Assembly (NCBI GenBank): GCA_963720545.1 | Contig: OY970399.1 | Span: 3,347,022 to 3,411,021 of the forward strand | Direction: 5' to 3' | Length of the DNA stretch: 64,000 nt | DNA from: an uncultured Acidobacteriota bacterium | Lineage (GTDB): Bacteria > Acidobacteriota > Vicinamibacteria > Fen-336 | Shown here: piece by piece, positions 19,289 through 57,999 of the stretch | Layout: each line of letters starts with the position of its first letter | Numbering within the stretch: position 1 is the stretch's first letter | Made by a program: the position numbers and the translations under genes | Notes under the pieces: generated by a model | Told to the model about the DNA's origin: nothing | The model's input: only the letters and a program-made list of their open reading frames with translations | Databases searched by the model: none

Positions 19289-19373
19289 TCATCGACGGAT
19301 TGGCGGTCGTTCCCGTCCAATCCGTCGATTTCCGTTAGGCCGTTTCCCAGGCGCTTGCGTCAGCGTCCGTTCC
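19289..19373 (+). repeat. Repeat element copy 1: hairpin ATCGACGGATTGG-N13-CCAATCCGTCGAT (19291-19329) plus module CCCAGGCGCTTGCGTCAGCGTCCGTTCC (19346-19373)
   Basis: Perfect 13-bp inverted repeat starting 2 nt after the uvrB stop; the 28-nt module is identical to the reverse-strand copy at 36971-36998. Confidence 0.85.
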
Positions 19374-34331: not shown

Positions 34332-35968
34332 TGTTCCTCGCCGCCGCGGCCGCCGGCACGGCGCAGGGCGGCGACCGCGAGCAGGGCCGCTCGCTGGTGA
34401 TGAGCAAGGGCGGCATCGTCGCGAGCGAGCACCCGCTCGCGTCGCAGGCAGGTGCCGCGATCCTGGCGAACGGCGGCAACGCCATCGACGCGGCGGTCGC
34501 GGCGAACGCTGTGATGGGCCTGGTGGCGCCAATGAGCAACGGCATCGGCGGCGACCTGTTCGCGATCGTCTACGACGCGAAGACGAAGAAGACCTACGGC
34601 CTGAACGCGAGCGGCTGGGCGCCGAAGGGGCAGTCGCGCGATCGCCTCGCGGCGGCGGGCCACAAGGAAATGCCCGCGGACGGGATCGAGACGGTGACGG
34701 TGCCGGGCGCGGTGGACGGCTGGAGCAAGCTGCTGGCGCGCTTCGGCACGCAGCCGCTCGCCGCGGTGCTGGCGCCGGCGATCCGCATTGCCGACGACGG
34801 GTTCCCGGTGAGCGAGTGGGTGGCCGCGAACTGGCAAGGCCACGACAAGATCCTCAAAGGCAACGCCCTTGCGTTGTACGTGCCGGGTGGCAAGGTGCCA
34901 GGCGTCGGCGACGTGTTTCGCAACCCCGACCTCGCGAACTCGCTGCGCGCCATCGCGAAGGGCGGCCGCGATGCCTACTACAAGGGCGCCATCGCGCAGG
35001 CGATCGTCGCCGAGTCGCAGGCGCACCACGGCACCATGGACGCGGCCGACCTCGCCGAGTACGAGAGCGAGTGGGTGGAGCCGATCAGCACCACGTACCG
35101 CGGCTGGACCGTTTACGAGATTCCGCCGAACACGCAGGGCATTGCAGCTCTCGTGATGCTCAACATGATGGAAGGCATGCCGCTTGCGCAGTGGGGGCAC
35201 AACTCCGCGCGCACGCTGCACAACCTCATCGAAGCGAAGAAGCTCGCGTACGCCGACATGATCCGCTACGTCGGCGATCCGCGAATGGCGGCAGTGCCAT
35301 CCGCCGGGCTGCTTTCCAAGGAGTACGCGGCGGGCCGCGCCAGACTCATCGACCCGGCGAAGGCGGCGGCAGCCGCGACCGCCGGCAGCGTGCGCGTCGG
35401 CAACGACACGATCTACCTCGCCACCGTGGACGGCGCCGGCAACATGGTGTCGCTGATCCAGAGCAACTACGAGAGCTACGGCTTTGGCTCAGGTCTGGTG
35501 GCGGCCGGCACCGGCTTCTGCCTGCACAACCGCGGCGCCTTGTTCACGCTCGACGCGCACAGCCCGAACGTGATCGCACCGCGCAAGCGGCCGCTGCACA
35601 CCATCATTCCCGCGATGATGGAACGCGGCGAGGAGCGCATCGGCTTCGGCATCATGGGCGGCTACAACCAGGCACAGGCGCACGCGCAGTTCGTCTCGAA
35701 CATCGTCGACCATGGCATGAACATCCAGGCGGCGATGGAAGCGGCGCGCTTCAACAAGTCCACGTTCGATGGGCTCGACGTGCAGATCGAGGACCGCGTC
35801 GCGCCTGAAGCGAAGGCCGAGCTCACACGCCTCGGCCACCAGATCACGTGGCGCCACGGCTTCTCCTCGAACATGGGCGGCGGCCAGGCGGTGATGCGCA
35901 ACTACAAGACCGGCGTCAACTCCGGCGCCTCCGACCCCCGCAAAGACGGCGCCGCCATCCCCCAGTAA
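34271..35968 (+). CDS. ggt: Gamma-glutamyltransferase, secreted
   Basis: GGT family motifs and autoprocessing-site region (TIYLATVDGAGNMVS); start chosen at ATG 34271 to include an Arg-rich signal peptide, which puts 61 bp inside the hpnE 3' end; alternative start ATG 34331. Confidence 0.8.
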   Translation: MDMEPGSRIRTRSRSRALGVMFLAAAAAGTAQGGDREQGRSLVMSKGGIVASEHPLASQAGAAILANGGNAIDAAVAANAVMGLVAPMSNGIGGDLFAIVYDAKTKKTYGLNASGWAPKGQSRDRLAAAGHKEMPADGIETVTVPGAVDGWSKLLARFGTQPLAAVLAPAIRIADDGFPVSEWVAANWQGHDKILKGNALALYVPGGKVPGVGDVFRNPDLANSLRAIAKGGRDAYYKGAIAQAIVAESQAHHGTMDAADLAEYESEWVEPISTTYRGWTVYEIPPNTQGIAALVMLNMMEGMPLAQWGHNSARTLHNLIEAKKLAYADMIRYVGDPRMAAVPSAGLLSKEYAAGRARLIDPAKAAAAATAGSVRVGNDTIYLATVDGAGNMVSLIQSNYESYGFGSGLVAAGTGFCLHNRGALFTLDAHSPNVIAPRKRPLHTIIPAMMERGEERIGFGIMGGYNQAQAHAQFVSNIVDHGMNIQAAMEAARFNKSTFDGLDVQIEDRVAPEAKAELTRLGHQITWRHGFSSNMGGGQAVMRNYKTGVNSGASDPRKDGAAIPQ

Positions 35969-36084
35969 TCGACGGATTGGCTTGTCCGTCCCCGTCCAAT
36001 CCGTCGATTTCCTGCTTGAGGTGTCGCACGGTGCAGCGAAAGTTCCCTCGGTCGCAGCGCAAGCGTTGAGCTCCTCGGGAAAAC
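35968..36084 (+). repeat. Repeat element copy 2: hairpin (35968-36008) plus module GCAGCGCAAGCGTT...CTCCTCGGGAAAAC (36054-36084)
   Basis: Same 13-bp arms as copy 1; the first base is shared with the ggt stop codon; the second module matches 19562-19591. Confidence 0.85.
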
Positions 36085-36970: not shown

Positions 36971-37056
36971 GGAACGGACGCTGACGCAAGCGCCTGGGGG
37001 GACGACAAGAACGGCAATCGACGGATTGGACGGGGACGGAGAGCCAATCCGTCGAT
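36971..37056 (-). repeat. Repeat element copy 3 (reverse orientation): hairpin 37017-37056 plus 28-nt module 36971-36998
   Basis: Hairpin ends 6 nt after the def stop on the minus strand; the module is the exact reverse complement of 19346-19373. Confidence 0.85.
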
Positions 37057-42336: not shown

Positions 42337-42378
42337 TCATCGGCGGATGGGCTTGCCGTTCACGACCCATCCGCCGAT
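42337..42378 (+). repeat. Repeat element copy 4, variant hairpin ATCGGCGGATGGG-N14-CCCATCCGCCGAT
   Basis: Starts 3 nt after the Lon-N gene stop; differs from the main type at paired positions on both arms. Confidence 0.8.
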
Positions 42379-43512: not shown

Positions 43513-44247
43513 CTAGAGGACGTCAGTACCGTCTTCCATCTCCAGCACCAGCAGGGTGCCGGCCACCGAGAGGGCCGGCGCCAGCAGGAAGGCGCCAAGC
43601 GGCACCAGGAAGATGAGGATGCCCGCGAGGCCGAAGCCGAGCGTCTCGGGGCGCAGGCGTTTGTGCCAGGCGCGGCGCGCGGCGAAGTCGAGGCCGCGGC
43701 GCGTCAGCGGCGCGTCGGTCTGTTGCAGCGCCAGCGCCTGCGAGGCCCAGAGCGCTGCCAGGAACGGTCCCACAACCGGTATCAGCGGGATGGGCAGCGT
43801 GACAAGCGCGGCTGCCAGGAAGAACAAGGCTCCCTTCACGGCCTGCATCGCCTCCCAGCCCGCTCCGTGGCTGCGGTCGATGACGTGGCCGCGCACCAGC
43901 TGCTCCACCCGGCGCGACAAGCGCTCCAGGACCGGCGCCGCCAGCAGCAGGGCCGACGCCAGCCCCACCACCATGCCGGCCGCGACCAGGCCGATCCAGA
44001 GGAGAGCGGTGAGCGGCAGGTGCAGCAGGCCCGGCAGCGATCGTGAAATGAGCAGCGGCTCGAGCCGCGGGGCGATGAACAGGCCGAGGATGCCGCCAAG
44101 GCCCCAGAAGAGCACGGCCAGTACCGCGGGCAGCGCCGCCAGCGGCCACGTGCCCGGGTGACGCACGAGGAACGCGATCCCGGCGAGCACCTGCCACGCG
44201 CCGGCGGCGATGCGCCTGGGCCAGCCGGGCAGGGAGGGCATGGCCAT
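43513..44247 (-). CDS. Multi-pass membrane protein (EI24/CysZ-like, tentative)
   Basis: 244 aa from ATG 44247; ~6 hydrophobic helices; family assignment from overall topology only. Confidence 0.5.
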   Translation of the reverse strand: MAMPSLPGWPRRIAAGAWQVLAGIAFLVRHPGTWPLAALPAVLAVLFWGLGGILGLFIAPRLEPLLISRSLPGLLHLPLTALLWIGLVAAGMVVGLASALLLAAPVLERLSRRVEQLVRGHVIDRSHGAGWEAMQAVKGALFFLAAALVTLPIPLIPVVGPFLAALWASQALALQQTDAPLTRRGLDFAARRAWHKRLRPETLGFGLAGILIFLVPLGAFLLAPALSVAGTLLVLEMEDGTDVL

Positions 44248-44271
44248 GAGGCTAAGGCCCCGTCTTCCCGT

Positions 44272-45129
44272 GTCAAAATCCGGCGCGGAGGCGATCCCTT
44301 GAATATCGGTTGGCTGCACCCGGTCGTCGTGCATTTCGCAATCGTCCTGGTCCTCGTCGGCGTGCTGTTCCGCCTGCTGTCGCTCGCGAGCAGCAGCCGC
44401 CTGTCTTTCGCGAGCCCGGCCGCAACCACGCTGATCCTCGCGGGCGCCGTCGCCGTGTTCTTCGCGTCGCAGTCCGGCCGCGATGCCCATGGGCCGGTGG
44501 AACGCGTGCCCGACTCGCGCGAAGTGGTGGAGCTGCACGAGGCCGCGGCCAAGTGGAGCACCAACTTCACCTACGCCCTGGCGCTCATCGAGGTGGGGCT
44601 GCTGTTCCTGCGCAACTCGCGCTACCGCCGCCATGCGCTGATCGCGGCGTCGGTGGTCGGCCTGTTCGCCGGATCGACGATGATCCTGACCGCGTGGCGC
44701 GGCGGGAACCTCGTCTACGCGCACGCGGGCGGCGTCGGCATCCGTTCCGGGGAATCGGCGGACGTGGGCAACCTGCTGCTCGCCGGCCTCTACCATCAGG
44801 CGCTGCAGGACCGCGAAGCGGGCCGGCGGCAGGAGGCGGCGGCGCTCGCCGACCTCGCGCTGCGCCGCTTCCCGTCGAGCATCGCGGTGCGCATGTTCCA
44901 CGCCGAATCGATCCTGCTCGACCGCCAGGACCCGTCGGCAACGCTCGCGGCCCTGGGCACGATCACGGTGCCGCCGGGCGAGGGCCGCGAGGTCGCTTAC
45001 GGGCTGCTGAAGGTCGATGCGCTGCAGGCTGCGGGCCGGCCCGGGGAAGCGCAGGCCGAACTGGACAGGCTCGCGAAGGAGTTCCCGACGAGCGGTCGGA
45101 TCAAGGCCCGCCTCGGCAGGGGCCGTTAG
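44272..45129 (+). CDS. Membrane protein (DUF2231-like N-terminal 4-TM domain) with C-terminal TPR-like region
   Basis: HPVVVHFAIVL motif at the first TM; TPR-like helical C-terminus; start uncertain (GTG 44272 or TTG 44299). Confidence 0.45.
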   Translation, partial: VKIRRGGDPLNIGWLHPVVVHFAIVLVLVGVLFRLLSLASSSRLSFASPAATTLILAGAVAVFFASQSGRDAHGPVERVPDSREVVELHEAAAKWSTNFTYALALIEVGLLFLRNSRYRRHALIAASVVGLFAGSTMILTAWRGGNLVYAHAGGVGIRSGESADVGNLLLAGLYHQALQDREAGRRQEAAALADLALRRFPSSIAVRMFHAESILLDRQDPSATLAALGTITVPPGEGREVAYGLLKVDALQAAGRPGEAQAELDRLAKEFPTSGRIKARLGRGR

Positions 45130-45440
45130 CCGCGAATCTTCTCGATCCTGCTGTCGCGGTCGCTCGCGAAGCGTTCCTTGTCGCGGCGATACTCGTCGTT
45201 CAGCGTCTCCAGCTCCTCAGGCGTGCGCGCCCGCACCTGTGCGTCGCGGAACAGGATCTCGCGTTCGGCCATGCGCGCCTCGTAAATGCTGCGCGCTTCC
45301 GCGATGTCGTGGCGCTGCGCGTCGCTCAGCGCCTTGCTGACCACACCAGCGTCGGCATCCTGCTTCTTCAGGCGGGCCATCGCGAGCTCGAGTGCGCTCT
45401 TGGGCGCGTCGTCTTCCGGTTCGGCTTCGTCCTTGCTCAT
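45126..45440 (-). CDS. Hypothetical small acidic coiled-coil protein
   Basis: 104-aa ORF, charged/helical; no recognised family. Confidence 0.4.
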   Translation of the reverse strand: MSKDEAEPEDDAPKSALELAMARLKKQDADAGVVSKALSDAQRHDIAEARSIYEARMAEREILFRDAQVRARTPEELETLNDEYRRDKERFASDRDSRIEKIRG

Positions 45441-45457
45441 GCCGGCAGTGTAGCCCC

Positions 45458-46186
45458 CTACAGGCGGCTGGCGAAGAACCGGCGCAGCGGTTCGATGAGC
45501 GCCTCGGGGTCGTCGGCCAGGATGTTCTCGGCGTGCAGCCCGCCCGGGATCACGACCAGCTCCTTCGGTTCGGTGGCGAGCGCGTAGAGGTCGTGCGCGT
45601 GTTTCACCGGGATCAGCCAGTCGTCGCTGCCGTGGACGATCAGCAGTGGGGCGACGATCTGCGCGATCAGCCGGCGCGGCGAGGTGCCGCGCAGCGGCGG
45701 GCGCAGCGACACGCGCGCCGGGCGGCGCTCGCGGCGCAGCATGATGGGCACGCTGCGCGTCAGGCCGCGGATGAAGGGGTTGTGGTCGAGCAGGAACAGG
45801 CTCTTCGGCGCGGCCACCAGCGCCACCGCGTCGAAGTTGGCGCCCTGCGCCGCGGCCGCGACGGTGTGATAGCCGCCGTAGGAGAAGCCGAGCGCGCCGA
45901 CGCGCGCGTAGCGCTCGTGCGCCCAGGCGGCGACCCTTTGCAGGTCGTGCGGCTCCTTGCGGCCCCAGCTGAAACGGCCCGCCGACTCGCCGTGGCCGCG
46001 CACGTCCATGGTGATGACGTCGGCGAGGTCGGCAAGCGCGCGCGCGAGGCGCAGGTGCTCGGGGCTCTCGCGGTGCATGAAGATGCCCGGTACCACCACG
46101 ATGGCGGCTTCCCGGCCGCTGCCGCGGACCGTGAGACGCAGGCTGGTGCCGTCGTCGGCTGCGAGCGTTTCAGACCGCGAGTTCAC
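45458..46186 (-). CDS. Alpha/beta hydrolase fold protein
   Basis: Nucleophile elbow GFSYGG; His/Asp region (HGSDDWLIP); 242 aa. Confidence 0.75.
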   Translation of the reverse strand: MNSRSETLAADDGTSLRLTVRGSGREAAIVVVPGIFMHRESPEHLRLARALADLADVITMDVRGHGESAGRFSWGRKEPHDLQRVAAWAHERYARVGALGFSYGGYHTVAAAAQGANFDAVALVAAPKSLFLLDHNPFIRGLTRSVPIMLRRERRPARVSLRPPLRGTSPRRLIAQIVAPLLIVHGSDDWLIPVKHAHDLYALATEPKELVVIPGGLHAENILADDPEALIEPLRRFFASRL

Positions 46187-47603
46187 CGCTCACCTCCGCG
46201 GCGAGCGGCGGCCGCGCGAAATAGTGCGCGATGGAATTGGCGTAGTAGCGCAGCAGCGGATCCTGGCTGCGATCGATGCGGTAGCGAACGACGCCGCCCT
46301 GCGCCGGAACCGGCTCGGCGATGTGGCGCAGGGTCAGCATCACCAGCGCCCGGTCGAGGAGTTCCGCGGCGGTGCGTTCGTCCGCGACGATCGGCGCGCC
46401 GCGTGAGCGCAGTTCGCCGCGCACCGCGTCGATGCGCGTCTCCCATTCCGCACGCTCGATCTCGGCGGCGGTGCCCGCGCGCAACAGGGTCTCGGCCACC
46501 AGGCACACCGGCGTCACCGGCATCACCTCGCCGATCTGCGCCATCACGTGCGCGGCCAGCTCGCCGACCGGGCCCAGGCGCTCATGGCGCGGCAGTTCGA
46601 GGATGCCGGGACGATCGCGCAGCCAGGCATCCACGTCGATCGGCGCGCCGAAGTTGACGCAGGCGCGCCCATAGCGGCGCCCGCGACGCGTCATGAAGCG
46701 CAGCGACACGCGCACCACGTACGCCACCACTTCGGCGAACTGCTCGAGGCGCGACAGCCGCGTGCGCGTCACGTCCAGCTCGCGAAGCAGCGAGCGGTCC
46801 TCGAGCACGCGGTCATAGTTGATCGCGACCGGGATGATGACGAGCGGCCGGATGACGCGCGGGTCGCGCTTCACGCCGAGCAGGTAATCGAGCAGGCCGA
46901 GCTTTGGCTGGCGGAAACGGCCGTCGCGGGTGAGGCCGCCCTCGAGGAAGATTCCCTGGGTCACGCCGTGGCGGGTGATGAGCTGGACGTAGCGCTCGAG
47001 CACCTTGTGATAGAGCGGCTCGCGGTACTTGCGGCGTACGAAGTACGCGCCGAAGCTCTTGAACACCGCCTCCAAGGGCCAGACGCGCGCCCATTCGCCG
47101 ACTGCGTAGCTGATGGCGACGCGGCCGGAGAGCACGTAGGTCACGACCACGTAGTCGGCGTTGGAGCGGTGGTTCATCAGGTACAGCACGATGCTGTCCC
47201 GCGGGATCGCGTCGAGCGCCGCGCGCGCCTCGTAGCCGACGCTCACCTTGTAGAAGAGCGGCACCAGGAAGCGCGCGACACCGTAGGCGAGGCGATAGTA
47301 GGAAATGAGGTTGAACCTGGGGACGATCTCCTCGGCATAACCGCGCGCGCGGCGCTCGGCGTCCTCGACCGAGCCGCCGGCGCTGTGCGCGTGTTCCGCG
47401 ATGGCGGCGCGCACCTCGGGATCCTCGAGCAGCGCGTCGCGCACCTCCTGCGGGGTCTCGCGCTTGAACGGCGCGATCCGCGAACGGTAGCGGCGGCGCA
47501 GGCCGCGGGCCTCCGACAAGGCGTAGCGCCGCAGCCAGGCGCGGCCCGCGAACCCCGCGCCCACCAGCAACAATGCGGCCGCGACCGCGCTCCGTGGGTC
47601 CAC
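46170..47603 (-). CDS. Glycerol-3-phosphate acyltransferase-like (PlsB/GPAT family) acyltransferase, membrane anchored
   Basis: HX4D motif NHRSNADYVV, FLEGGLTRDG and PVAINYD blocks; N-terminal TM; GTG start at 47603 inferred; the upstream part of track ORF 46170..48074 is antisense to xdh and rejected. Confidence 0.65.
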   Translation of the reverse strand: MDPRSAVAAALLLVGAGFAGRAWLRRYALSEARGLRRRYRSRIAPFKRETPQEVRDALLEDPEVRAAIAEHAHSAGGSVEDAERRARGYAEEIVPRFNLISYYRLAYGVARFLVPLFYKVSVGYEARAALDAIPRDSIVLYLMNHRSNADYVVVTYVLSGRVAISYAVGEWARVWPLEAVFKSFGAYFVRRKYREPLYHKVLERYVQLITRHGVTQGIFLEGGLTRDGRFRQPKLGLLDYLLGVKRDPRVIRPLVIIPVAINYDRVLEDRSLLRELDVTRTRLSRLEQFAEVVAYVVRVSLRFMTRRGRRYGRACVNFGAPIDVDAWLRDRPGILELPRHERLGPVGELAAHVMAQIGEVMPVTPVCLVAETLLRAGTAAEIERAEWETRIDAVRGELRSRGAPIVADERTAAELLDRALVMLTLRHIAEPVPAQGGVVRYRIDRSQDPLLRYYANSIAHYFARPPLAAEVSGELAV

Positions 47604-47627
47604 CGCGGGAATATAATCCTTCGCGGG

Positions 47628-49868
47628 ATGCGGGCGATCGGCAAGAGCGTGTTGCGCACGGAGGGCCCGGACAAGCTGTGCGGCGCCACGCGCTACACCG
47701 ACGACATCGAACCCGAGGGTTGCCTGCACGGCGTCACGCTGCGCGCGACCATCCCCTACGGGCGGATCCTGGCGATCGAGAAGGACCCGGCCTTCCCCTG
47801 GCGCGAGTTCGTGGTGGCGACCGCGAAGGACCTGCCGGGGCCCAACCGCGTGCAGCTCATCGAGGACGACCAGCCGCTCCTCTGCGAGGAGTGGGTGCGC
47901 CATCCGTACGAACCGATCCTGCTGGTGGCGCACGCCAACCGCTCGCGGGCGTACGAAGCCCTCCGGCACATCCGTGTCACCTACGAGCCGCACGAGCCGG
48001 TGCTCTCGATCGACGACGCGCTGGCGGTGAAGCAGAAGCTGCGCGGCGAGGACAACGTCTTCAAGTCGTTCCACATCGTGCAGGGCGACATCGACGCGGG
48101 CTTCGCGGCGGCCGACCTCGTAGTTTCAGGCGAGTACACGGTGCCGCACCAGGAACAGGCCTACATCGAGAACAACGTGATGACCGCGTGGTTCGAGGCG
48201 GACGGCACGCTGGTGGCGCACGGCTCGATGCAGTGCCCGTACTACGTGCACAAGGCGCTGCGCGGGTTGTTCAAGCTGAAGGGCGAGAAGGTGCGGGTCA
48301 TCCAGGCGCCGACCGGCGGCGGCTTCGGCGGCAAGGAGGAGTACCCGAACATGATCGCTGGTCACGCGGCGCTGCTGGCGCGCAAGGCGAAGCGGCCGGT
48401 GAAGATCGCCTACGACCGCCACGAAGACATGGCGGCCACCACCAAGCGCCATCCGGCGCGCATCCGCCACCGCACCGGCGTGAAGCGCGACGGCACACTG
48501 GTGGCGCAGGACATCGAGGTGGTCATGGACGGCGGCGCCTACATCACGCTGTCGCCCGTGGTGTTGTCGCGCGGCACGCTGCACGCGACCGGGCCGTATG
48601 CCTGCCCCAACGTGCGCATCCGCTCGAGTGTGGTCGCGACCAACACCGTGCCGAACGGCGCCTTCCGTGGTTTCGGGGCGCCGCAGACGCTGTTCGCCGC
48701 CGAGCTGCACATGGCGCGCATCGCCGCCGAGCTGCGCCTCGACCCCGTGGCGCTGCGCGAGAAGAACGCGGTGCGCCGCGGCTCGGTGATGGCGACCGGC
48801 CAGGTGCTGCGCGAGAGCGTCGGCGCGCGCCAGGCGCTGCAGCGCGTGGTCGCCGACTCCGGCTATCGCCGCAAACGGGTCGAGCACGCCAGGTGGAACG
48901 CGCAGCCGGGCACTGCGCACTGGAAGGGCGTGGGCCTGGCGCTCGTCCACCACGGCTCGGGCTTCACCGGCAGCGGCGAGGAGCACCTCGCGAGCCGCGC
49001 CGCGGTGACGCTGACCCGCACCGGCCGCATTCGCGTGCTCGCCGGCTCCACAGAATTCGGCCAGGGGACCAACACGATGTTCAGCCAGATCGTCGCCGAG
49101 ACGCTCGGCGTCGCGACAGCTCTCGTCGACGTCGCGACTCCCGACACCCGCTTCGTCCCCGACAGCGGGCCGACGGTGGCGAGCCGCACCTGCATGGTCG
49201 TCGGCCGCCTGGTGCGCGACGCGTGCCGCGACCTGCACGCGGCGGTCAGCGGCCGCAAGCCGTTTCCGCGCTCGGCGCGCGACCTGCGCGCGGCCGCGAA
49301 GCGCGTCTGCGGCACGCGCGACGAGGTGCGCTTCGAGCGCCAATACGAGAAGCCGGCCGCCATCACCTGGGACGACACCACCTACCGCGGCGATGCCTAC
49401 GAAGCGTACGGCTACGCCGCGGCGGTGGTGGACCTCGAGGTGGACAAGCTGACGTTCGAGGTGACGCTGCGCCGCGTCACGCTCGCCGCCGACATCGGCC
49501 GGGTGGTGAACCCGGTGCTCGCCGCGGGCCAGGTGATCGGCGGCGCGGCGCAGGGCCTCGGCTATGCGCTCCTCGAGAACCCAGTGTACAAGGACGGGGC
49601 GATGCAGAACGCGCAGCTCACGAACTACATCATCCCGACCGCGAAGGACCTGCCGCAGATCGACGTCGCTTTCACGCCCGCGCTCTACTCGCTCGGGCCG
49701 TATGGCGCCAAGGGTGTGGGCGAGTTGCCGATGGACATTCCCGGGCCGGCGGTGGCCGACGCGGTGCACGACGCCACCGGCCTCTGGATCACCTCGCTGC
49801 CGGTGCTGCCGGAGAAGATCGCTGCGGCGCATGGCGCCCGCCGGCGCGGCACCGCGGTGCCGGCGTGA
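47628..49868 (+). CDS. Xanthine dehydrogenase family, molybdopterin-binding large subunit
   Basis: 746 aa from ATG 47628; XDH/aldehyde oxidase large-subunit blocks (GGGFGGKE, FRGFGAPQ, GQGTNTMFSQIVAE). Confidence 0.85.
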   Translation: MRAIGKSVLRTEGPDKLCGATRYTDDIEPEGCLHGVTLRATIPYGRILAIEKDPAFPWREFVVATAKDLPGPNRVQLIEDDQPLLCEEWVRHPYEPILLVAHANRSRAYEALRHIRVTYEPHEPVLSIDDALAVKQKLRGEDNVFKSFHIVQGDIDAGFAAADLVVSGEYTVPHQEQAYIENNVMTAWFEADGTLVAHGSMQCPYYVHKALRGLFKLKGEKVRVIQAPTGGGFGGKEEYPNMIAGHAALLARKAKRPVKIAYDRHEDMAATTKRHPARIRHRTGVKRDGTLVAQDIEVVMDGGAYITLSPVVLSRGTLHATGPYACPNVRIRSSVVATNTVPNGAFRGFGAPQTLFAAELHMARIAAELRLDPVALREKNAVRRGSVMATGQVLRESVGARQALQRVVADSGYRRKRVEHARWNAQPGTAHWKGVGLALVHHGSGFTGSGEEHLASRAAVTLTRTGRIRVLAGSTEFGQGTNTMFSQIVAETLGVATALVDVATPDTRFVPDSGPTVASRTCMVVGRLVRDACRDLHAAVSGRKPFPRSARDLRAAAKRVCGTRDEVRFERQYEKPAAITWDDTTYRGDAYEAYGYAAAVVDLEVDKLTFEVTLRRVTLAADIGRVVNPVLAAGQVIGGAAQGLGYALLENPVYKDGAMQNAQLTNYIIPTAKDLPQIDVAFTPALYSLGPYGAKGVGELPMDIPGPAVADAVHDATGLWITSLPVLPEKIAAAHGARRRGTAVPA

Positions 49869-50581
49869 TCAACCTCTCGGTCAATGGCCGCCGTCGCGCC
49901 TTCTCGGGGCCGCCGTGGAAGCGCCTCCTCGACGTGCTGCGCGAAGACTTCGCGCTGACGGGCACCAAGGAGGGCTGCGGCGAAGGCGAGTGCGGTGCCT
50001 GCACCGTGCTCATAGACGGCGCCCCGGTGAACAGCTGCCTGATCCCCGCCTGCCAGGTCGCCGGCCAGCGCGTCGAGACGATCGAAAGCCTTGGCCGCCC
50101 CGCGGCGCTGAGCGTCTTGCAAGAACGCTTCCTCGCGATGGGCGGCGCGCAGTGCGGCATCTGCACCCCGGGCATGCTGATGGCCGCCTGGGCCCACGTC
50201 AAAGCCGGCGGCTCCGCTTCCCCCGACGCTGTTCGCGAGCAACTGGCCGGCAACCTCTGCCGCTGCACCGGCTATCAGGCGATTGTGGATGCTGTTATTG
50301 AGACGATTCGTCTTGAGACGATTCGAAAATCGCTAAAGCGAATCGTCTCAATTCCGGGCCAGAGGTCCGTTGCCGCTCCCAGGAAGAAGTCCGTCCGTCC
50401 TCCCAGGAAGAAATCCGTTCGTTCTCCCAAGAAGAGAGCGGCGCCGCTTTCCAGGAAAAGGACCGTCGCGTCCGCCACAAAGAAATCAGCAGCGCCTGAC
50501 AAACGGAAATCTCGTCCTCGGAGGAAGTCCGTTGTCAGGTCAGCTATGTCTCCGAAGACGAGAAGCGTGAAGACGAGATAA
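49865..50581 (+). CDS. Xanthine dehydrogenase family [2Fe-2S] small subunit with Lys/Arg/Ser-rich C-terminal repeat tail
   Basis: GTG start overlapping the large-subunit stop; two 2Fe-2S motifs (CGEGECGACTV and CGICTPG...CRCTGY); ~75 extra C-terminal residues PRKKSVRPPRKKSVRSPKKRAAP.... Confidence 0.8.
   Translation: MINLSVNGRRRAFSGPPWKRLLDVLREDFALTGTKEGCGEGECGACTVLIDGAPVNSCLIPACQVAGQRVETIESLGRPAALSVLQERFLAMGGAQCGICTPGMLMAAWAHVKAGGSASPDAVREQLAGNLCRCTGYQAIVDAVIETIRLETIRKSLKRIVSIPGQRSVAAPRKKSVRPPRKKSVRSPKKRAAPLSRKRTVASATKKSAAPDKRKSRPRRKSVVRSAMSPKTRSVKTR
50298..50475 (+). repeat. Lower-GC repeat block inside the small-subunit 3' region: TTGAGACGATTCG direct and inverted copies (50298-50351) and ~24-bp tandem repeats (50377-50475)
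   Basis: Perfect 13-bp inverted repeat 50313-50325 / 50339-50351, an extra direct copy at 50298-50310, then degenerate CTCCCAGGAAGAAGTCCGTCCGTC-type tandem units. Confidence 0.8.
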
Positions 50582-50582
50582 C

Positions 50583-51449
50583 GTGCGCGGTAATCCTCTT
50601 CGCATCACCGTGTCGCGGCCAGCCACAGCGGAGCAGGCGATTGCCGCGTACGCCGCGCGGCCTGACTCGCTGCCGTTTGCCGGCGGCACCGACCTGATGG
50701 TCGCCTGGAACGCCGGCGACTGGCACGACCGCGAAGTCCTCGACCTGTCGGCGCTCGACGAGTGGCGCAGCATCGCTGCGGCGGCGGGGGAATTGCGCAT
50801 CGGCGCCCTGGCCACGCACACGAGCCTGCGCCGCCACGAAGCGGTCGCCCGCCACGCGCCGCTGCTGGCGTCGGCCTGCGCCACCATCGGCGGCATCCAG
50901 ATCCAGAACCGCGGCACGCTCGGCGGCAACATCGCCAATGCCTCGCCGGCGGGCGACACGTTTCCGCCGCTCGCTATCTACGACGCCGTGGTCCACATCG
51001 CCGCAGCGCGCGGCGCGCGGCAGGTACCGTTCGCCGCGGTGTTCAGCGGCGTGAAGAAGACCGTGCTCGAACCGGGCGAGCTGATCGACGCGATCACGAT
51101 CCCGATCCCGGCGGCGCCGCCCGACCGGGTGATGTTCCGCAAGGTCGGCACGCGCGCCGCGCAGGCGATCTCCAAGGTGGTCGCGGCCGGCGCCTTGTGG
51201 TTCACGGCCGACGGCACCGTGGCCGACGTCCGCTTTGCCCTCGGCAGCGTGGCGCCGACGGTGAAGCGCGCCGCCGCGGTCGAGAAATTCCTCAAGAACC
51301 GCTGGCTCACCAGGAACGTGGTGCGCGAGGCGTGCCTCAAGCTCGAAGCCGACATCAAGCCCATCGACGACATCAGGTCCACCGCGGAGTATCGAATAAA
51401 CGTTGCCAGGGCGCTGCTGTCGTCCTTCCTCGGCCAGGACCCCCGTTGA
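50583..51449 (+). CDS. Xanthine dehydrogenase family FAD-binding subunit (CoxM/XdhB-like)
   Basis: 288 aa; FAD-binding molybdopterin-dehydrogenase pattern (AGGTDL, GTLGGNIANASP). Confidence 0.8.
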   Translation: MRGNPLRITVSRPATAEQAIAAYAARPDSLPFAGGTDLMVAWNAGDWHDREVLDLSALDEWRSIAAAAGELRIGALATHTSLRRHEAVARHAPLLASACATIGGIQIQNRGTLGGNIANASPAGDTFPPLAIYDAVVHIAAARGARQVPFAAVFSGVKKTVLEPGELIDAITIPIPAAPPDRVMFRKVGTRAAQAISKVVAAGALWFTADGTVADVRFALGSVAPTVKRAAAVEKFLKNRWLTRNVVREACLKLEADIKPIDDIRSTAEYRINVARALLSSFLGQDPR

Positions 51450-52771
51450 AAACGAAACGGCCGGAGAAACAAGCGCGGGCGTCGTTCACCCCGGTGCTGG
51501 CCACGCTGCGCCGCGCCAACAGCGTGCTGGCGAAGCGCTATCCGGGCGATCCCGACGGCCGCCAGCCGGTGCACACCGTCTACGGCGGCGCGCACCTCTT
51601 CAAGGCCGATACCGCACCGCGCCTGGGCGCGCTCGCCCTGCGCGCGCTCGACCAGCACGCGCCCGACCCGATCTCGTTCGCCGGCGCGCTGCAGTTGCAG
51701 GTGCCCGACGGCCTCGACCCGTTCCGTCACGCCACCGAGATCTACGAGCGCGTCACGGCCAAGCTGCGACGTGAGCCGGTGGAAGACTTCCGCATCGACT
51801 TCGAGGACGGCTACGGCAACCGCCCCGACGCCGAGGAGGACGGGCACGCCGTGTCCGCGGCCCGCGCCGTGGCGGAGGGTGCCCGGGCGGGCACGCTGCC
51901 GCCGTTCATCGGCATCCGCATCAAGACGCTCTCGAACGAACTCGCCGCGCGCAGCCTGCGCACTCTCGAGGTCTTCGTCGCCACGCTGGTAGAGGCGACC
52001 GGCGGCCGGCTGCCGCCGGGCTTCGTCGTCACCCTGCCGAAGATCATGGTGCCCGGACAGGTGCGGGCGCTGGCGCGGGCGCTTGCCGCGCTCGAGAAGG
52101 CGCACGGCCTCGCCGACCACTCGCTGCGCTTCGAGCTGATGGTGGAGACCACGCCCTCGATCTTCGACCACGAGGGACGCCTGGCGCTGCCGGCCCTGAT
52201 CGCGCTCGGCGACTCGCGCATCACCGCGGCGCACTTCGGCACTTACGACTACACCGCGTCGTGCAATATCACCGCCGCACACCAGTCGATGACGCATCCG
52301 GCCTGCGACTTCGCCAAGCAGGTGATGCAGGTGGCGCTCGCCGGCACCGGCATCACGCTCTCGGACGGCGCCACCAACGTGATGCCGGTCGGCGAGCGCG
52401 AGACCGTGCACCACGCCTGGCACCTGCACTTCCAGCAGGCGCGCCATTCGCTGATGCAGGGCTTCTACCAGGGGTGGGACCTGCACCCGGCACAGCTCGC
52501 GAGCCGCTATGCCGCGGTCTACTCGTTCTTCCTCGAGGGCCTCGGGCCGGCCTCCGAACGGCTGCGCAACTTCGTGGACAAGGCGGCGCAGGCAACGCTC
52601 GTCGGCGACATCTTCGACGACGCCGCCACCGGCCAGGGCCTGCTCAACTACTTTCTGCGCGCCCTCAACTGCGGCGCCATCGACGAGGCCCAGGCGCTCG
52701 CCACCGGCCTCACCCGCGACGAGCTGCGCACCCGCTCGTTCGTGCGGATCATGAAGGCGCGGCGCGCGTAG
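51446..52771 (+). CDS. Malate synthase / CitE-like (HpcH-HpaI) superfamily protein, putative
   Basis: TTG start overlapping the upstream stop; DFEDGYG acidic motif and TIM-barrel-like pattern; family assignment tentative. Confidence 0.45.
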   Translation: MKTKRPEKQARASFTPVLATLRRANSVLAKRYPGDPDGRQPVHTVYGGAHLFKADTAPRLGALALRALDQHAPDPISFAGALQLQVPDGLDPFRHATEIYERVTAKLRREPVEDFRIDFEDGYGNRPDAEEDGHAVSAARAVAEGARAGTLPPFIGIRIKTLSNELAARSLRTLEVFVATLVEATGGRLPPGFVVTLPKIMVPGQVRALARALAALEKAHGLADHSLRFELMVETTPSIFDHEGRLALPALIALGDSRITAAHFGTYDYTASCNITAAHQSMTHPACDFAKQVMQVALAGTGITLSDGATNVMPVGERETVHHAWHLHFQQARHSLMQGFYQGWDLHPAQLASRYAAVYSFFLEGLGPASERLRNFVDKAAQATLVGDIFDDAATGQGLLNYFLRALNCGAIDEAQALATGLTRDELRTRSFVRIMKARRA

Positions 52772-53572
52772 TCAGCGCCTGCGGATCCACCAGGCCGCGC
52801 CCCAGCCGACCAGGACCATCGCACCGAGCACCGCGAGCGGGTGGCCGCTGCCGTAGGCGATTGTCGGGAAGTGGCTGCCGACCATGGTGAAGAGCACCGG
52901 CAGCACGATAAAGGTGTTGTGCCTGGAGCGGCTCCTGGCGGTGGCCGCGAGCAGCGGATCGGGAGCCTGGCCGGCGCGGATGGCGCGCACCATCTGCTTC
53001 TGGCCGGGGATGATGCGGTCGGTGACGTTCGTCGCCATGATGGTGCCGAGCAGCGCGCCCACGTGGATGTAGGCGGCGCGCGGGCTCATCACCTGCAGCA
53101 GCCACCACGCGGCCGCCAGCAACAGGAGGTACGAGAGGACGATCGCGGCTGTCTCGAAGCGGCCCATGGCGCGCGCCCAGAGCTGGTCGTACACCATCCG
53201 GCCGACGAACACGGTGAGGATCCCCTGGAACACGGCGCGCCCGACGCTCGCTTCGGGGTCGGCCACCATCAGCCCGCCGGTCCAGTACACCATCAGCAGC
53301 AGCGCGACGCCCGAGGACCAGGTAAAAATCGCCTCCCACTGGAACCAGTGCAGGGTCTTCGGCAGCGGCGCCAGTGTCGCACGCTTCTCGACCACGTAGA
53401 AGCCGCCGCTGTGCACCATGAACACCTGGTTGCCGGGGTTTTCCTCGGCGTCGGCGAACGCGCGCTCGAGGAACGTGAAGAGCCAGGTCTGGCCGATCCA
53501 GAGAATCGCCGCGAACACGTGCGACCAGCGCAGCGCGAGGTGCAGCCATTCGCTCCAGTCGCTCCACTGCAT
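52772..53572 (-). CDS. Integral membrane protein resembling the membrane domain of PuuD-type urate hydroxylase (tentative)
   Basis: 266 aa, ~6 TM helices with conserved His/Trp-rich segments, no CxxCH heme motif; assignment leans on its position in the purine catabolism cluster. Confidence 0.5.
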   Translation of the reverse strand: MQWSDWSEWLHLALRWSHVFAAILWIGQTWLFTFLERAFADAEENPGNQVFMVHSGGFYVVEKRATLAPLPKTLHWFQWEAIFTWSSGVALLLMVYWTGGLMVADPEASVGRAVFQGILTVFVGRMVYDQLWARAMGRFETAAIVLSYLLLLAAAWWLLQVMSPRAAYIHVGALLGTIMATNVTDRIIPGQKQMVRAIRAGQAPDPLLAATARSRSRHNTFIVLPVLFTMVGSHFPTIAYGSGHPLAVLGAMVLVGWGAAWWIRRR

Positions 53573-53576
53573 GGGC

Positions 53577-53921
53577 TTACGTCCCCTTGTAGGTGCTGTA
53601 GCCGAACGGGCTCAATAGCAGGGGCACGTGGCTGTGCGCTGTGGCGTCGTCCACGTCGAATACCACGATCGCGTACGGGAAGAACGAGCGGCTGCCTTTC
53701 TCCGACTGGTACACGCCCACCTCGAAGGTGAGCCGGTAGCGGCCGGTGGTGAAGTCGGAGCCGCCCCAAAGGCCGCGCGCCCGGCCGTCGGCATCGGTGT
53801 GGCCGCGGCCGACGACCACCCAGTCGCCGCCGACTTCCTTCTCGAGGAGCACCGGCACGCCGGCCGCCGGCCGGCCGCGCGCCGTGTCGAGCACATGGGT
53901 CGTGATGCCACCACCGTTCAT
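53577..53921 (-). CDS. 5-hydroxyisourate hydrolase (transthyretin-like)
   Basis: 114 aa; transthyretin-fold motifs (ITTHVLDTARGRPAAGV); C-terminal YKGT in place of the usual YRGS. Confidence 0.75.
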   Translation of the reverse strand: MNGGGITTHVLDTARGRPAAGVPVLLEKEVGGDWVVVGRGHTDADGRARGLWGGSDFTTGRYRLTFEVGVYQSEKGSRSFFPYAIVVFDVDDATAHSHVPLLLSPFGYSTYKGT

Positions 53922-54431
53922 CTAGGGAACCTCCGCGAGCCACTTGTCGAGCCGCAATGCAGTGATCTTCTCCTGTTCGCTCGCCGCTTTCCTGAGCTCG
54001 GCCGCGGGCGAGGCGCGCAGCCGCTCGCGCAGGTCCTCGAGCATGTCCGCGGCGCTCCGGCCGGTGGCACAGACGATGAAGATGTGGCCGAACTGCCGCT
54101 CGTACTCCAGGTTGCCGGCCATCAGCGCCACGAGCGTCTTTTCGTCAGCGCCAGCCGCGGCGTGCTGCTCGCCCTGCGACCAGGTGGCGGCGAAGCGCTC
54201 GCGCATCGCCTCGAGGTCGCCGATGCGCGGATGTTGCGCGAACGCCTCGAGCCAGTCCTCGCGGTCGAGCGCGCGCCATGCCGTGCGTGCCGCCTCGTGG
54301 AGCGCTGCCGCGCTTGCGAACGGCCGGCCCAGGAGCATGGCGTCAACCCAGCGGCTCGAGCCGCAGCAGCGGCTGAAGCCGGCCGCGGCATCGGCCTCAG
54401 GAAGGCCGTTAACGGCGGCGAGTCCGCCCAT
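53922..54431 (-). CDS. OHCU decarboxylase (2-oxo-4-hydroxy-4-carboxy-5-ureidoimidazoline decarboxylase)
   Basis: 169 aa; motifs HPRIG and FGHIFIVCATG. Confidence 0.8.
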   Translation of the reverse strand: MGGLAAVNGLPEADAAAGFSRCCGSSRWVDAMLLGRPFASAAALHEAARTAWRALDREDWLEAFAQHPRIGDLEAMRERFAATWSQGEQHAAAGADEKTLVALMAGNLEYERQFGHIFIVCATGRSAADMLEDLRERLRASPAAELRKAASEQEKITALRLDKWLAEVP

Positions 54432-55401
54432 GGATCCGCAACCTGCTGATGCCGCCGTCCGGGAAGATGCGCAGGCGCACGTGGGTGAATGGCCCCGCGG
54501 CGCGCAGCATCGCCGCGCCGAAATAGTGCCGCGTGTTCGCCTTCAGCGGGCTGCGCTGCAGCACGTCCTGCCACGGCCCGCCGTCCACATCGGCGGCCAC
54601 CGCGTCGGCTTCGCCCAGGTGCGCCGCCTGCAGCGACGCGCTCTCCGGGAAGTTGCCCTTGAAGTGGTTGGTGTCGATCTCGATGCGCTCCAGCACGCCG
54701 GCGTTGCCGAGTTTGACGATCACCCAGTCATAGCCCGGCCCGCGGCGCCGCCGCGTCTCCCACCCCTCGCCCATGTTGGGCGCGCGGCCCGGCAGGATCA
54801 GGTTCGACTTGAGGCCGAAGTGTTCGTCGCTCGCGAGCAGCACGCGGCCGCCGTGTTCCAGCGCCGCGAGGTCCACGAGCTTGCCCGCGAGCGCCGGCCA
54901 GTCGACGCTGACCTCGCCGTGGACCCGCAGGCGCGCGACGCCGCCGTCCGGAAAGATGTTGAGCCGCACGTGCGTCACCGGCGGGCGCAGCGGCACTTCC
55001 ACGGGGTTCGACGCGCCGGGCGACAGCAGCCACGGATCGACGACCTGCACCCAGGCGGCGTGCGCCAGCTTGTCCTTGGTGGCCGTGCCCTTCAGGTCGC
55101 AGACGTCGATCGAGGCGCGCTCCGGCTGGTTGCCGATGAAGTAGTTGGTGTCCACGTCGATGCCGCGCAGCACGCCGCGCAGCCCCAGCTCGACGATGCA
55201 CCAGTCGTGGCCCGGGGTGCGGCGCCGGCGCGTCTCCCAGCCGTCCATCCACTTGCCGCGCTGGGTGAACTTGTCGGCGATGAAGACGCCGCGGCCGGGG
55301 CGCAGGAGGTTGTGGCGCGAGGCGAAGAACTCGTCGTTCGCCAGCAGGGCGCGCCCGCCGACGCGTGCGGCGGCGAGGTCCGGATAGTCAGCGAAGTCCA
55401 T
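54409..55401 (-). CDS. Allantoicase
   Basis: 330 aa from ATG 55401; two repeated allantoicase domains (GWETRRRR..., IFPDGG...RLR twice). Confidence 0.85.
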   Translation of the reverse strand: MDFADYPDLAAARVGGRALLANDEFFASRHNLLRPGRGVFIADKFTQRGKWMDGWETRRRRTPGHDWCIVELGLRGVLRGIDVDTNYFIGNQPERASIDVCDLKGTATKDKLAHAAWVQVVDPWLLSPGASNPVEVPLRPPVTHVRLNIFPDGGVARLRVHGEVSVDWPALAGKLVDLAALEHGGRVLLASDEHFGLKSNLILPGRAPNMGEGWETRRRRGPGYDWVIVKLGNAGVLERIEIDTNHFKGNFPESASLQAAHLGEADAVAADVDGGPWQDVLQRSPLKANTRHYFGAAMLRAAGPFTHVRLRIFPDGGISRLRIHGRTRRR

Positions 55402-57732: not shown

Positions 57733-57821
57733 CATCGGCGGATGGGCCGCCTCGCCGACCATCCGCCGATTTCCGTTCGTCCATTCTTTCGTTCCCAGGC
57801 GCTTGCGTCCGGGTCCGTTCC
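57733..57821 (+). repeat. Repeat element copy 5: variant hairpin (57734-57770) plus module CCCAGGCGCTTGCGTCCGGGTCCGTTCC (57794-57821)
   Basis: Starts 6 nt after the GNAT gene stop; same stem variant as copy 4. Confidence 0.85.
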
Positions 57822-57928: not shown

Positions 57929-57999
57929 GACGCAAGCGCCTGGGGAACGGACTAACGGAAATCGACGGATTGGACGCGAACGATCGCCAATCCGTCGAT
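57929..57999 (-). repeat. Repeat element copy 6 (reverse orientation): hairpin 57961-57999 plus module core GACGCAAGCGCCTGGGG (57929-57945)
   Basis: Main-type 13-bp arms; inverted relative to copy 5 about 190 bp away. Confidence 0.85.

Follow-up and report, generated by a model that had tools for sequence, protein, structure and literature searches.

A Lys/Arg-rich, repeat-built C-terminal tail on the [2Fe-2S] subunit of a xanthine dehydrogenase-type enzyme from an uncultured Acidobacteriota bacterium

Why does a small iron-sulphur subunit, of a type that usually ends shortly after its last Cys motif, carry a long and strongly basic tail encoded by low-GC repeats? The question arises from a 64,000-nt stretch of DNA of an uncultured Acidobacteriota bacterium (assembly GCA_963720545.1, contig OY970399.1, positions 3,347,022 to 3,411,021 of the forward strand), hereafter called the window. 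An earlier note on this DNA had described a lower-GC, repeat-rich segment joined in frame to the gene for the [2Fe-2S] (FeS) subunit of a xanthine dehydrogenase (XDH)-type enzyme. It left open whether the encoded tail is a binding appendage, a recent insertion or a structured element between cistrons that is in frame by chance. The in-frame Lys/Arg-rich repeat tail was confirmed in our analysis. We concluded that it is unusually long and actively expanding, and that it is neither a foreign insert nor an artefact nor a known RNA element. On balance we think it probable that it represents a translated, hypervariable polycationic tail of a kind typical for the lineage, which probably serves as an electrostatic tether to a polyanion.

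The gene (49865..50581, + strand) encodes 238 aa including the tail and runs from a GTG start at 49865 to a TAA stop at 50579-50581, with no internal stop codon between the FeS domain and 50579. Its product contains the Pfam domains Fer2 and Fer2_2 (PF00111 with 30.4 bits and PF01799 with 84.8 bits, both exceeding the cut-off) and was matched by NCBIfam models and by homologues in the Protein Data Bank (PDB), the latter with E-values of 1e-41 to 1e-31. The motifs CGEGECGAC, QCGICTPG and CRCTGY were invariant across the homologue alignment. With these domains and Cys motifs, and with genes for a large (L) and a medium (M) subunit as its neighbours, the protein is a molybdenum hydroxylase [2Fe-2S] small subunit (S) of the CoxS/XdhC/PucE type. 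The equivalog cut-offs of the NCBIfam models XdhC_XDHase and pucE (217-258 bits) were not reached, the best scores being 153-156 bits. Residues 1-150 resemble the CoxS, XdhC, PucE and HcrC subunits (PDB 1rm6_C, 1t3q_A, 3hrd_D and 1ffv) in both 2Fe-2S domains and in all Cys motifs. The operon of tightly coupled genes in the order L-S-M, with the FeS gene as the middle one, is also that of other molybdenum hydroxylases.

The C-terminus is different. The CRCTGY motif ends at codon 137 (position 50275) and 101 codons follow in the window gene, compared with the usual 13-20 residues that we counted after this motif in 80 genome loci. The CoxS-type subunits end 10-20 residues past the motif, while the window protein adds an extended helix and a stretch of polybasic disorder. 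The solved stand-alone small subunits comprise 158-168 aa and their alignment stops at residue ~144-154 of the window protein; the Pfam domains end at residue 144 and the NCBIfam models at 144-152. The gene exceeds the usual end by about 75-85 codons, in agreement with the roughly 75 open codons that had been reported before, and the tail as a whole can be put at 86 residues.

The last helix of the FeS domain (residues 138-162; 50276..50350, + strand), delimited from an AlphaFold2 (AF2) model and the codon table, owes its extra length to a 15-nt duplication and to the residues KSLKRIVS. In the AF2 model, which was based on a 24-sequence alignment, the FeS core was confident and one long helix was seen for residues 137-162, with a mean pLDDT of 93 for residues 141-150 and of 90 for residues 151-160. 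Residues 163-238 showed no secondary structure (pLDDT 47-67) and are predicted to be intrinsically disordered. This part has a net charge of +28 and a pI of 12, and it contains 15 Arg, 14 Lys, 12 Ser, 9 Pro and 9 Ala, with one SPKK, one SPKT and two PRKK motifs; the proposed likeness to histone H1-type tails is one of composition (SPKK-like), with no homology to any known tail. Lys accounts for 48% of all Lys and Arg in the tail vs ~21% in the genes of the window. No Pfam domain was detected in the tail, and a protein search with the tail alone in 5.8 billion clusters gave no homologue. It is the sole Lys-containing polybasic stretch among the stop-free frames of at least 80 codons in the window, and a proteome-wide habit of basic tails was rejected on this ground. 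We also rejected a role of the tail as neutraliser of acidic partner subunits, because the molybdenum (Mo)-binding and FAD-binding subunits are basic themselves (+11 and +7, respectively).

A Lys/Arg-rich C-terminus is characteristic of this entire clade of small subunits. After the last helix, 106 of the 120 best homologues (57-86% identity) carry a net charge of at least +3; the median fraction of Lys and Arg is 0.53 and acidic residues are nearly absent. The extensions of these homologues are 2-89 residues long, and the window ties for the longest. Their sequences are mutually unrelated, and many have internal repeats of their own. Tails of more distant homologues are mostly non-basic; among the 70 loci with sufficient downstream flank, 17 had a basic tail. 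Distant homologues from Chloroflexia, Myxococcota and other groups have mostly short, non-basic ends, and some are fused to the FAD domain. We found no report in the literature on basic tails of XDH or CoxS small subunits.

The best matches listed in our genome and metagenome scans were Acidobacteriota/Vicinamibacteria-like metagenome bins with at most 70% identity, and no relative listed there exceeded 71%. The closest relatives of the 238-aa window protein are two proteins of 162 aa (P0001) and 213 aa (P0121). P0121, encoded on a 1.5-Mb contig of the European Nucleotide Archive (ENA), has a core that is 98% identical (3 differences in 145 residues) and a tail of the same plan (…VIETIR-RTRK-RIVSIPGQRSVA-SPRKKSVA-SPRKRAAA…). 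The two tails differ by four in-frame indels of 5, 8, 7 and 5 aa: P0121 has no duplicated LETIR, is one 8-aa unit short and lacks a segment of 7 aa as well as the last 5 aa. The aligned tail positions are ~69% identical with frequent swaps of Lys and Arg, and the tail has evolved ~10 times faster than the core. The number of repeats, which the note had suggested comparing between strains, thus varies between close relatives. The gene of P0001 is complete and is followed after 2 nt by the FAD gene; the end of the protein (…KRIVRKPGKR, followed by the stop codon) aligns with …KRIVSIPGQR of the window after removal of the 15-nt duplication. From the comparison of the three proteins we therefore reconstructed an ancestor with a basic end of ~25 residues. 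The lineage of the window and P0121 would have extended this end by amplifying its terminal segment, and the window lineage appears to have gained 25 residues in four in-frame events.

In P0024, P0028, P0029, P0019 and P0117, homologues from the same clade, we observed Lys/Ala-rich basic extensions at the N-terminus, e.g. MAAPASRVKKAAVKKAAVKAAAK; basic low-complexity ends are therefore possible at both termini.

The tail is built from repeats. About 9.5 decaying copies of a 24-nt unit, encoding 8 aa each, make up the disordered polybasic part (50351..50578, + strand). The units read IPGQRSVA, APRKKSVR, PPRKKSVR, SPKKRAAP, LSRKRTVA, SATKKSAA, PDKRKSRP, RRKSVVRS, AMSPKTRS and VKTR, with the consensus xPRKKSVR. 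The repeats had first been placed at 50377-50475; they are present there, but their extent is wider. Tandem Repeats Finder (TRF) reported 2.5 clean 24-nt copies at 50376-50435, and the periodicity over 50351-50578 exceeded that of codon shuffles with z = 6.1 at lag 24, z = 4.2 at lag 48 and z = 3.4 at lag 72. In addition, two shorter duplications were found. The first is a 15-nt tandem duplication (TTGAGACGATTCG and 2 nt, two copies; 50298..50327, + strand), which encodes (I)ETIR/LETIR and is missing in both P0121 and P0001. The second is a 15-nt-spaced tandem repeat (GAAGACGAGA, two copies; 50554..50578, + strand), which encodes KTRSV/KTR at the extreme C-terminus, where P0121 is 5 aa shorter.

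The low GC content of this region was confirmed: the extension holds the lowest-GC 100-nt (0.48) and 300-nt (0.537) stretches of the window, which has a mean of 0.70. The GC content of first codon positions drops from 0.68 to 0.44-0.46 because of the codons for Lys, Ser, Thr and Ile. At third codon positions (GC3) it is 0.58-0.61 in the extension vs 0.88 in the FeS core and 0.90 in the FAD gene, and the codons AGG, AGA, CGT, AAA, TCT, TCA, GTT, CCT and ATT, which are rare in the genome, are frequent. A synonymous-codon index similar to the codon adaptation index (CAI) was 0.21 for the tail vs a minimum of 0.35 in 951 windows of the same size from other genes, a value to be read with caution as the repeated 24-nt seed inflates the effective sample and few codons are independent. 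In six homologues with readable DNA, GC3 in tail and body was 0.67/0.90, 0.69/0.89, 0.78/0.82, 0.89/0.94, 0.59/0.82 and 0.79/0.87. It was lowered in all six tails, and therefore the drop in GC3 is general to tails of this kind. The earlier note had reasoned that orthologues with a conserved tail of normal GC would make the tail an ordinary extension of the lineage. Tails are indeed present in orthologues, but their sequence is poorly conserved and their GC3 is not normal.

Other open frames of 61-75 codons lie over the tail at 50370-50570 (+ strand, frame +1) and at 50275-50502 and 50295-50480 (- strand). Extra open frames are expected because of the low-complexity repeats, and as none of the frames has the GC3 signature of the genome, their presence is no evidence of genes.

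The mechanism that we propose for the polycationic tail starts from these repeats. Small in-frame tandem duplications, comprising about nine copies of the 24-nt unit and the two 15-nt duplications, would have made the tail hypervariable in length and sequence, and each amplification of a short seed would copy its rare codons many times. Such an origin by micro-duplication, together with the many codons for Lys, Ser and Ile, would explain the repeats, the low GC content and the atypical synonymous codons. Both 15-nt duplications each copy one arm of an inverted repeat, which fits slippage or template switching at palindromes as their mutational source. The perfect palindrome described below may itself be a quasi-palindrome or a product of template switching. 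Charge, rather than sequence, would be the conserved property, and the tail would act as a non-specific electrostatic tether. A disordered peptide of charge +28 in the bacterial cytoplasm will bind polyanions. One candidate is the anionic inner face of the membrane, where a PuuD-type urate oxidase would take the urate; RNA, ribosomes, DNA and polyphosphate are equally possible. The membrane is attractive as a target because urate would be consumed by a membrane oxidase of PuuD type encoded 2 kb away (PMC4562309). Translation and retention of the tail, selection on its charge and its tethering role are what we infer from these comparisons.

Several points weigh against this proposal. The low GC3 in the window starts at ~50282, inside the conserved helix, and is back to normal at 50583. 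The helix has a GC3 of 0.43 in the window vs 0.86-0.93 in six homologues, which is unique among the seven loci compared, and this codon anomaly of the non-repeat helix (50282-50350) is unexplained by repeat amplification. As no frame over the tail has the usual GC3 signature of the genome, composition cannot confirm the frame. With respect to the membrane, the helix before the tail has a hydrophobic moment of no more than 0.47, i.e. moderate amphipathicity, for which reason we rejected a strong amphipathic membrane helix, and the tail is without the aromatic and hydrophobic residues typical of membrane anchors. Neither a PuuD nor a DUF6986 gene lies in the 6 kb downstream of the long-tailed homologue L087; the loci compared for co-occurrence of these genes with basic tails had flanks of unequal length. 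Furthermore, the tail could be clipped after translation, and tails that simply amplify a basic seed could stay basic in the absence of selection.

The main rival explanation is accordingly a tolerated, functionless repeat expansion, i.e. a translated tail in which slippage-prone repeats of basic codons drift at an exposed and tolerant C-terminus. We regard it as possible, though rather unlikely. The range of 2-89 residues in the clade speaks for it, since functional enzymes evidently exist nearly tail-free, and so do the 162, 213 and 238 aa of the closest relatives, the roughly tenfold faster evolution of the tail, its poor codon usage and the lack of a conserved sequence motif. However, drift does not readily account for positive charge and few acidic residues on unrelated sequences in 106 of 120 homologues, nor for the basic N-terminal extensions of some of them (P0024, P0029). 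The Lys share of 48% vs ~21% runs counter to the GC pressure of a 70% GC genome, and all four indels between P0121 and the window preserve the frame. In a further view, selection maintains the polycationic tail as a localisation device of tunable length, which would hold a soluble molybdoenzyme of purine catabolism on a polyanionic surface (the membrane beside the PuuD-type urate oxidase, or ribosomes, RNA or polyphosphate). The tail would be arising nearly de novo in this lineage by serial micro-duplications at the end of the gene, possibly from a captured post-stop hairpin. This view seems doubtful to us.

The hairpin itself lies at 50297..50352 (+ strand) and is perfect, with the right arm CGAATCGTCTCAAT. 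The 13-bp inverted repeat at 50313-50351 and its direct copy at 50298-50310, both known from the earlier note, were found again. In this pairing 50313-50325 matches 50339-50351 over 13 bp with a 13-nt loop, but pairing of 50297-50310 with 50339-50352 is better still, giving a perfect 14-bp stem with a 28-nt loop. Fourteen bp is the longest perfect short-range inverted repeat of the window, tied with one REP-like (repetitive extragenic palindrome-like) element, and the maximum in 20 block shuffles was 13. The structure prediction asked for by the note gave -34.5 kcal/mol for the 81-nt hairpin stretch (z = -5.1), which was matched by 0 of 200 shuffles. This structure could in principle be the core of the locus, maybe as a captured REP-like palindrome acting on mRNA stability, processing or FeS:FAD expression, with the coding read-through being secondary. 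We consider that improbable, although the stable stem and its position 12-25 codons past CRCTGY, where most homologues stop, are in its favour.

Six REP-like palindromes are present in the window, at 19291-19329, 35967-36009, 37017-37056, 42339-42378, 57734-57770 and 57961-57999. Their arms are 13 nt long (ATCGACGGATTGG; two copies have ATCGGCGGATGGG, with changes matching in both arms), the loops 13-15 nt, and the flanks cTAGTC ... TTCCGTT are conserved, with no U-tract. Four of the six copies start 1-6 nt past a stop codon, and the TAG of the flank is often that stop. They could be terminators lacking a U-tract, mRNA stabilisers or mobile REP elements.

The tail hairpin shares with these palindromes the 13-13-13 geometry, the flanks GTC ... 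TTCCG and a site at the normal gene end. Unlike them, it has arms of which only 6 of 13 positions are identical to theirs, an unrelated loop and a place inside the open reading frame (ORF), and its left arm simply encodes part of the last helix in conserved sequence. A covariance model (R1) of the six copies ranked the tail hairpin (50303-50361) as the best non-member in the window, but the score of 10.7 bits (E = 1.7) was not significant, as compared with 61-77 bits for the members, and membership in the REP family was rejected. At the protein level both arms are kept in P0121 (ETIR and RIVS), while P0001 has ATLR and RIVR. The latter difference could, going by the translated sequences, reflect a paired change of the arms, which would be compatible with a structural element. 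On the other hand, neither a comparable inverted repeat nor a comparable folding z-score was detected in 24 other homologous loci (duplicate copies of two contigs included), and a conserved hairpin was rejected. Rfam returned only MIR856 at 18 bits vs a gathering score of 297, a generic hairpin match. No intrinsic terminator site was predicted in 49800-50900, the stem being followed by TCCGGGCC and not by a U-tract, and no known promoter pattern was found around the hairpin. A known RNA element, terminator or promoter was rejected on these results. Translating ribosomes would unwind the stem, and the 228-nt repeat array would be left unexplained. As the hairpin was not found in the DNA of other homologues and the frame is kept through four indels, the idea of an intercistronic element that is in frame by chance is not supported. 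A second hairpin near the start of the FAD gene (50510-50563) was not significant (z = -1.1).

An origin of the gene's 3' end, from ~50282 onwards, in a donor of lower GC, whether through recombination or through insertion of foreign or mobile DNA, is very improbable. It would agree with the lowest-GC segment of the window, with the sharp change of codon usage at ~50282 and its return at 50583, and with the low GC3 of the helix that only the window shows. But P0121 and P0001 share the helix and the initial units of the tail with the window in conserved, collinear form, and the tails of homologues have a lowered GC3 as well. Target-site duplications, terminal repeats of known elements and mobility genes are all absent nearby. 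A blastn search of 50270-50590 against plasmids and phages gave no match, and with no homologue of the tail among the 5.8 billion protein clusters a foreign or mobile origin was rejected. The earlier suggestion of a recent insertion does not hold in this sense, as polybasic C-termini occur throughout the clade and the tail plan is inherited in P0121.

The sequence could be compared with a second assembly. Contig_21461 of ENA ERZ25039530 (64,184 nt; our L169/L172) matches the window 100% on both sides of the operon (compared over 43720-54781), and two short-read contigs (L170, L171) are 100% identical to 52624-54684. Over 47900-52700, i.e. the L-S-M and DUF6986 genes, contig_21461 has 8-15% mismatches and many frameshifting indels. 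Within this part lies a clean island from 50287 to ~50700 that covers the tail and the start of the FAD gene. Here the tail departs from that of the window at only two bases, and the contig has the two 15-nt duplications, the stop codon and the junction in identical form. The contig is probably a hybrid consensus of two related populations. Its noisy part resembles a mixture with the operon of another subclade and is most simply explained by reads of a related organism that were cross-recruited during consensus building. The tail would be spared because such reads have nothing to align to in a strain-specific tail. In our view the contig supports the sequence of the tail together with its stop codon and junction, but we draw no biology from it, and the two assemblies may not be independent. 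After 54781 contig_21461 diverges structurally from the window, and its allantoicase is truncated. A sequencing or assembly artefact, such as loss of a stop codon or collapse or expansion of a repeat, is scarcely credible. In its favour, repeats and hairpins are error-prone in assemblies, contig_21461 is visibly noisy across the operon, and the public collections contain neither the exact FeS protein nor the exact FAD protein. Against it, the tail is the one clean part of that contig, and long basic tails in this frame occur independently in P0121 and in over 40 homologues.

Basic low-complexity tails have been described for other bacterial proteins. The Lys-rich repeats of Chlamydia Hc2 vary in number between strains (PMC2848022), as do those in the basic low-complexity tail of mycobacterial Ku (PMC3553676), and Pseudomonas AlgP is found on polyphosphate granules (PMC9239181). 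The tails of Hc2, of Ku, HupB and TopA (PAKKA) and of AlgP resemble that of the window in being disordered and rich in repeated Lys, Arg, Pro, Ala and Ser, the window having SPKK, SPKT and PRKK units. There is no sequence homology, and the unit of the window is 8 aa long (xPRKKSVR) whereas theirs are PAKKA or KPAA pentamers. Moreover, their tails sit on proteins associated with DNA, DNA ends or polyphosphate for which binding of polyanions was demonstrated, whereas the carrier in the window is a redox enzyme subunit. Another parallel is the linker between the FeS and FAD parts of fused XdhA-type and eukaryotic XDH, likewise a disordered segment that leaves the C-terminus of the second 2Fe-2S domain before the FAD module (TIGR02963 coverage 17-162 and 195-464). 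In contrast to the fused enzymes, a stop codon ends the FeS gene of the window and the FAD gene follows in frame +1. In L038, L045 and L047, genome bins of Chloroflexia, FeS and FAD domains are fused via a Pro-rich, non-polybasic linker of ~40 residues at the position of the basic tail.

Electrostatic disordered tails have so far been described chiefly for proteins of the nucleoid, of DNA repair and of polyphosphate. If the tail is functional, it would show that they can also place an everyday redox enzyme of metabolism inside a bacterial cell, and it would offer a simple way to study how purine catabolism is arranged in space in little-known soil lineages. Should the doubtful reading as a localisation device be true, the locus would be a live example of both the birth of coding sequence and charge-based enzyme targeting in bacteria. 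Whatever its function, the tail provides a clean natural series (162, 213 and 238 aa; 2-89 extra residues in the clade) for the origin of coding sequence by micro-duplication, and for the way in which this growth skews GC content and codon usage nearby. Annotators may take it as a warning that a sharp intragenic trough in GC or codon usage need not mean foreign DNA.

The genes around the tail fit the L-S-M arrangement. The Mo-binding large subunit gene (47628..49868, + strand; 746 aa; Pfam Ald_Xan_dh_C, MoCoBD_1 and MoCoBD_2) lies upstream, with its TGA stop overlapping the GTG start of the FeS gene (GTGA), and a 746-aa Mo-subunit gene is likewise found upstream in L081, L083 and L088. Downstream follows the gene of the FAD-binding medium subunit (50583..51449, + strand; 288 aa; Pfam FAD_binding_5 and CO_deh_flav_C). 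At the junction (50579..50585, + strand) the TAA stop of the FeS gene is separated by one base from the GTG start of the FAD gene in frame +1. Homologues have the same kind of junction, with an overlap or a gap of at most 5 nt, and the tight stop-start arrangement suggests translational coupling of the two genes. A fusion of the FeS and FAD proteins was rejected, given the TAA at 50579 and the stop of frame +1, the frame of the FAD gene, at 50568-50570. The same stop excludes, by our reasoning, an S-M fusion via frameshift, the AGA-TAA-C junction not being slippery.

On the opposite strand nearby, genes for a PF06181 membrane urate oxidase, HIUase, OHCU decarboxylase and allantoicase were found. 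Because of these neighbours the natural reading of the enzyme is xanthine dehydrogenase, its substrate being deduced from the purine-catabolism genes only. PuuD is reported to be an integral-membrane cytochrome c urate oxidase (PMC4562309). The homologue in the window (52772-53572, - strand) is shorter, with 266 aa and no domain other than the PF06181 membrane domain, so that the electron route of the cytochrome c type PuuD may not apply to it.

Among the homologues, P0003 (211 aa) has an N-terminal Fer2 segment that is duplicated internally, with LTGTKEGCGEGECGACTV occurring twice; either a genuine tandem duplication or an error of assembly could explain this. Directly 3' of the FAD gene lies a DUF6986 gene (51452-52771, + strand; PF22484, 620 bits). 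It is equally placed in L081, L083 and L086, the copy of L086 having a weak HpcH_HpaI match, and DUF6986 seems to be a conserved, uncharacterised fourth gene of the purine-catabolic operon.

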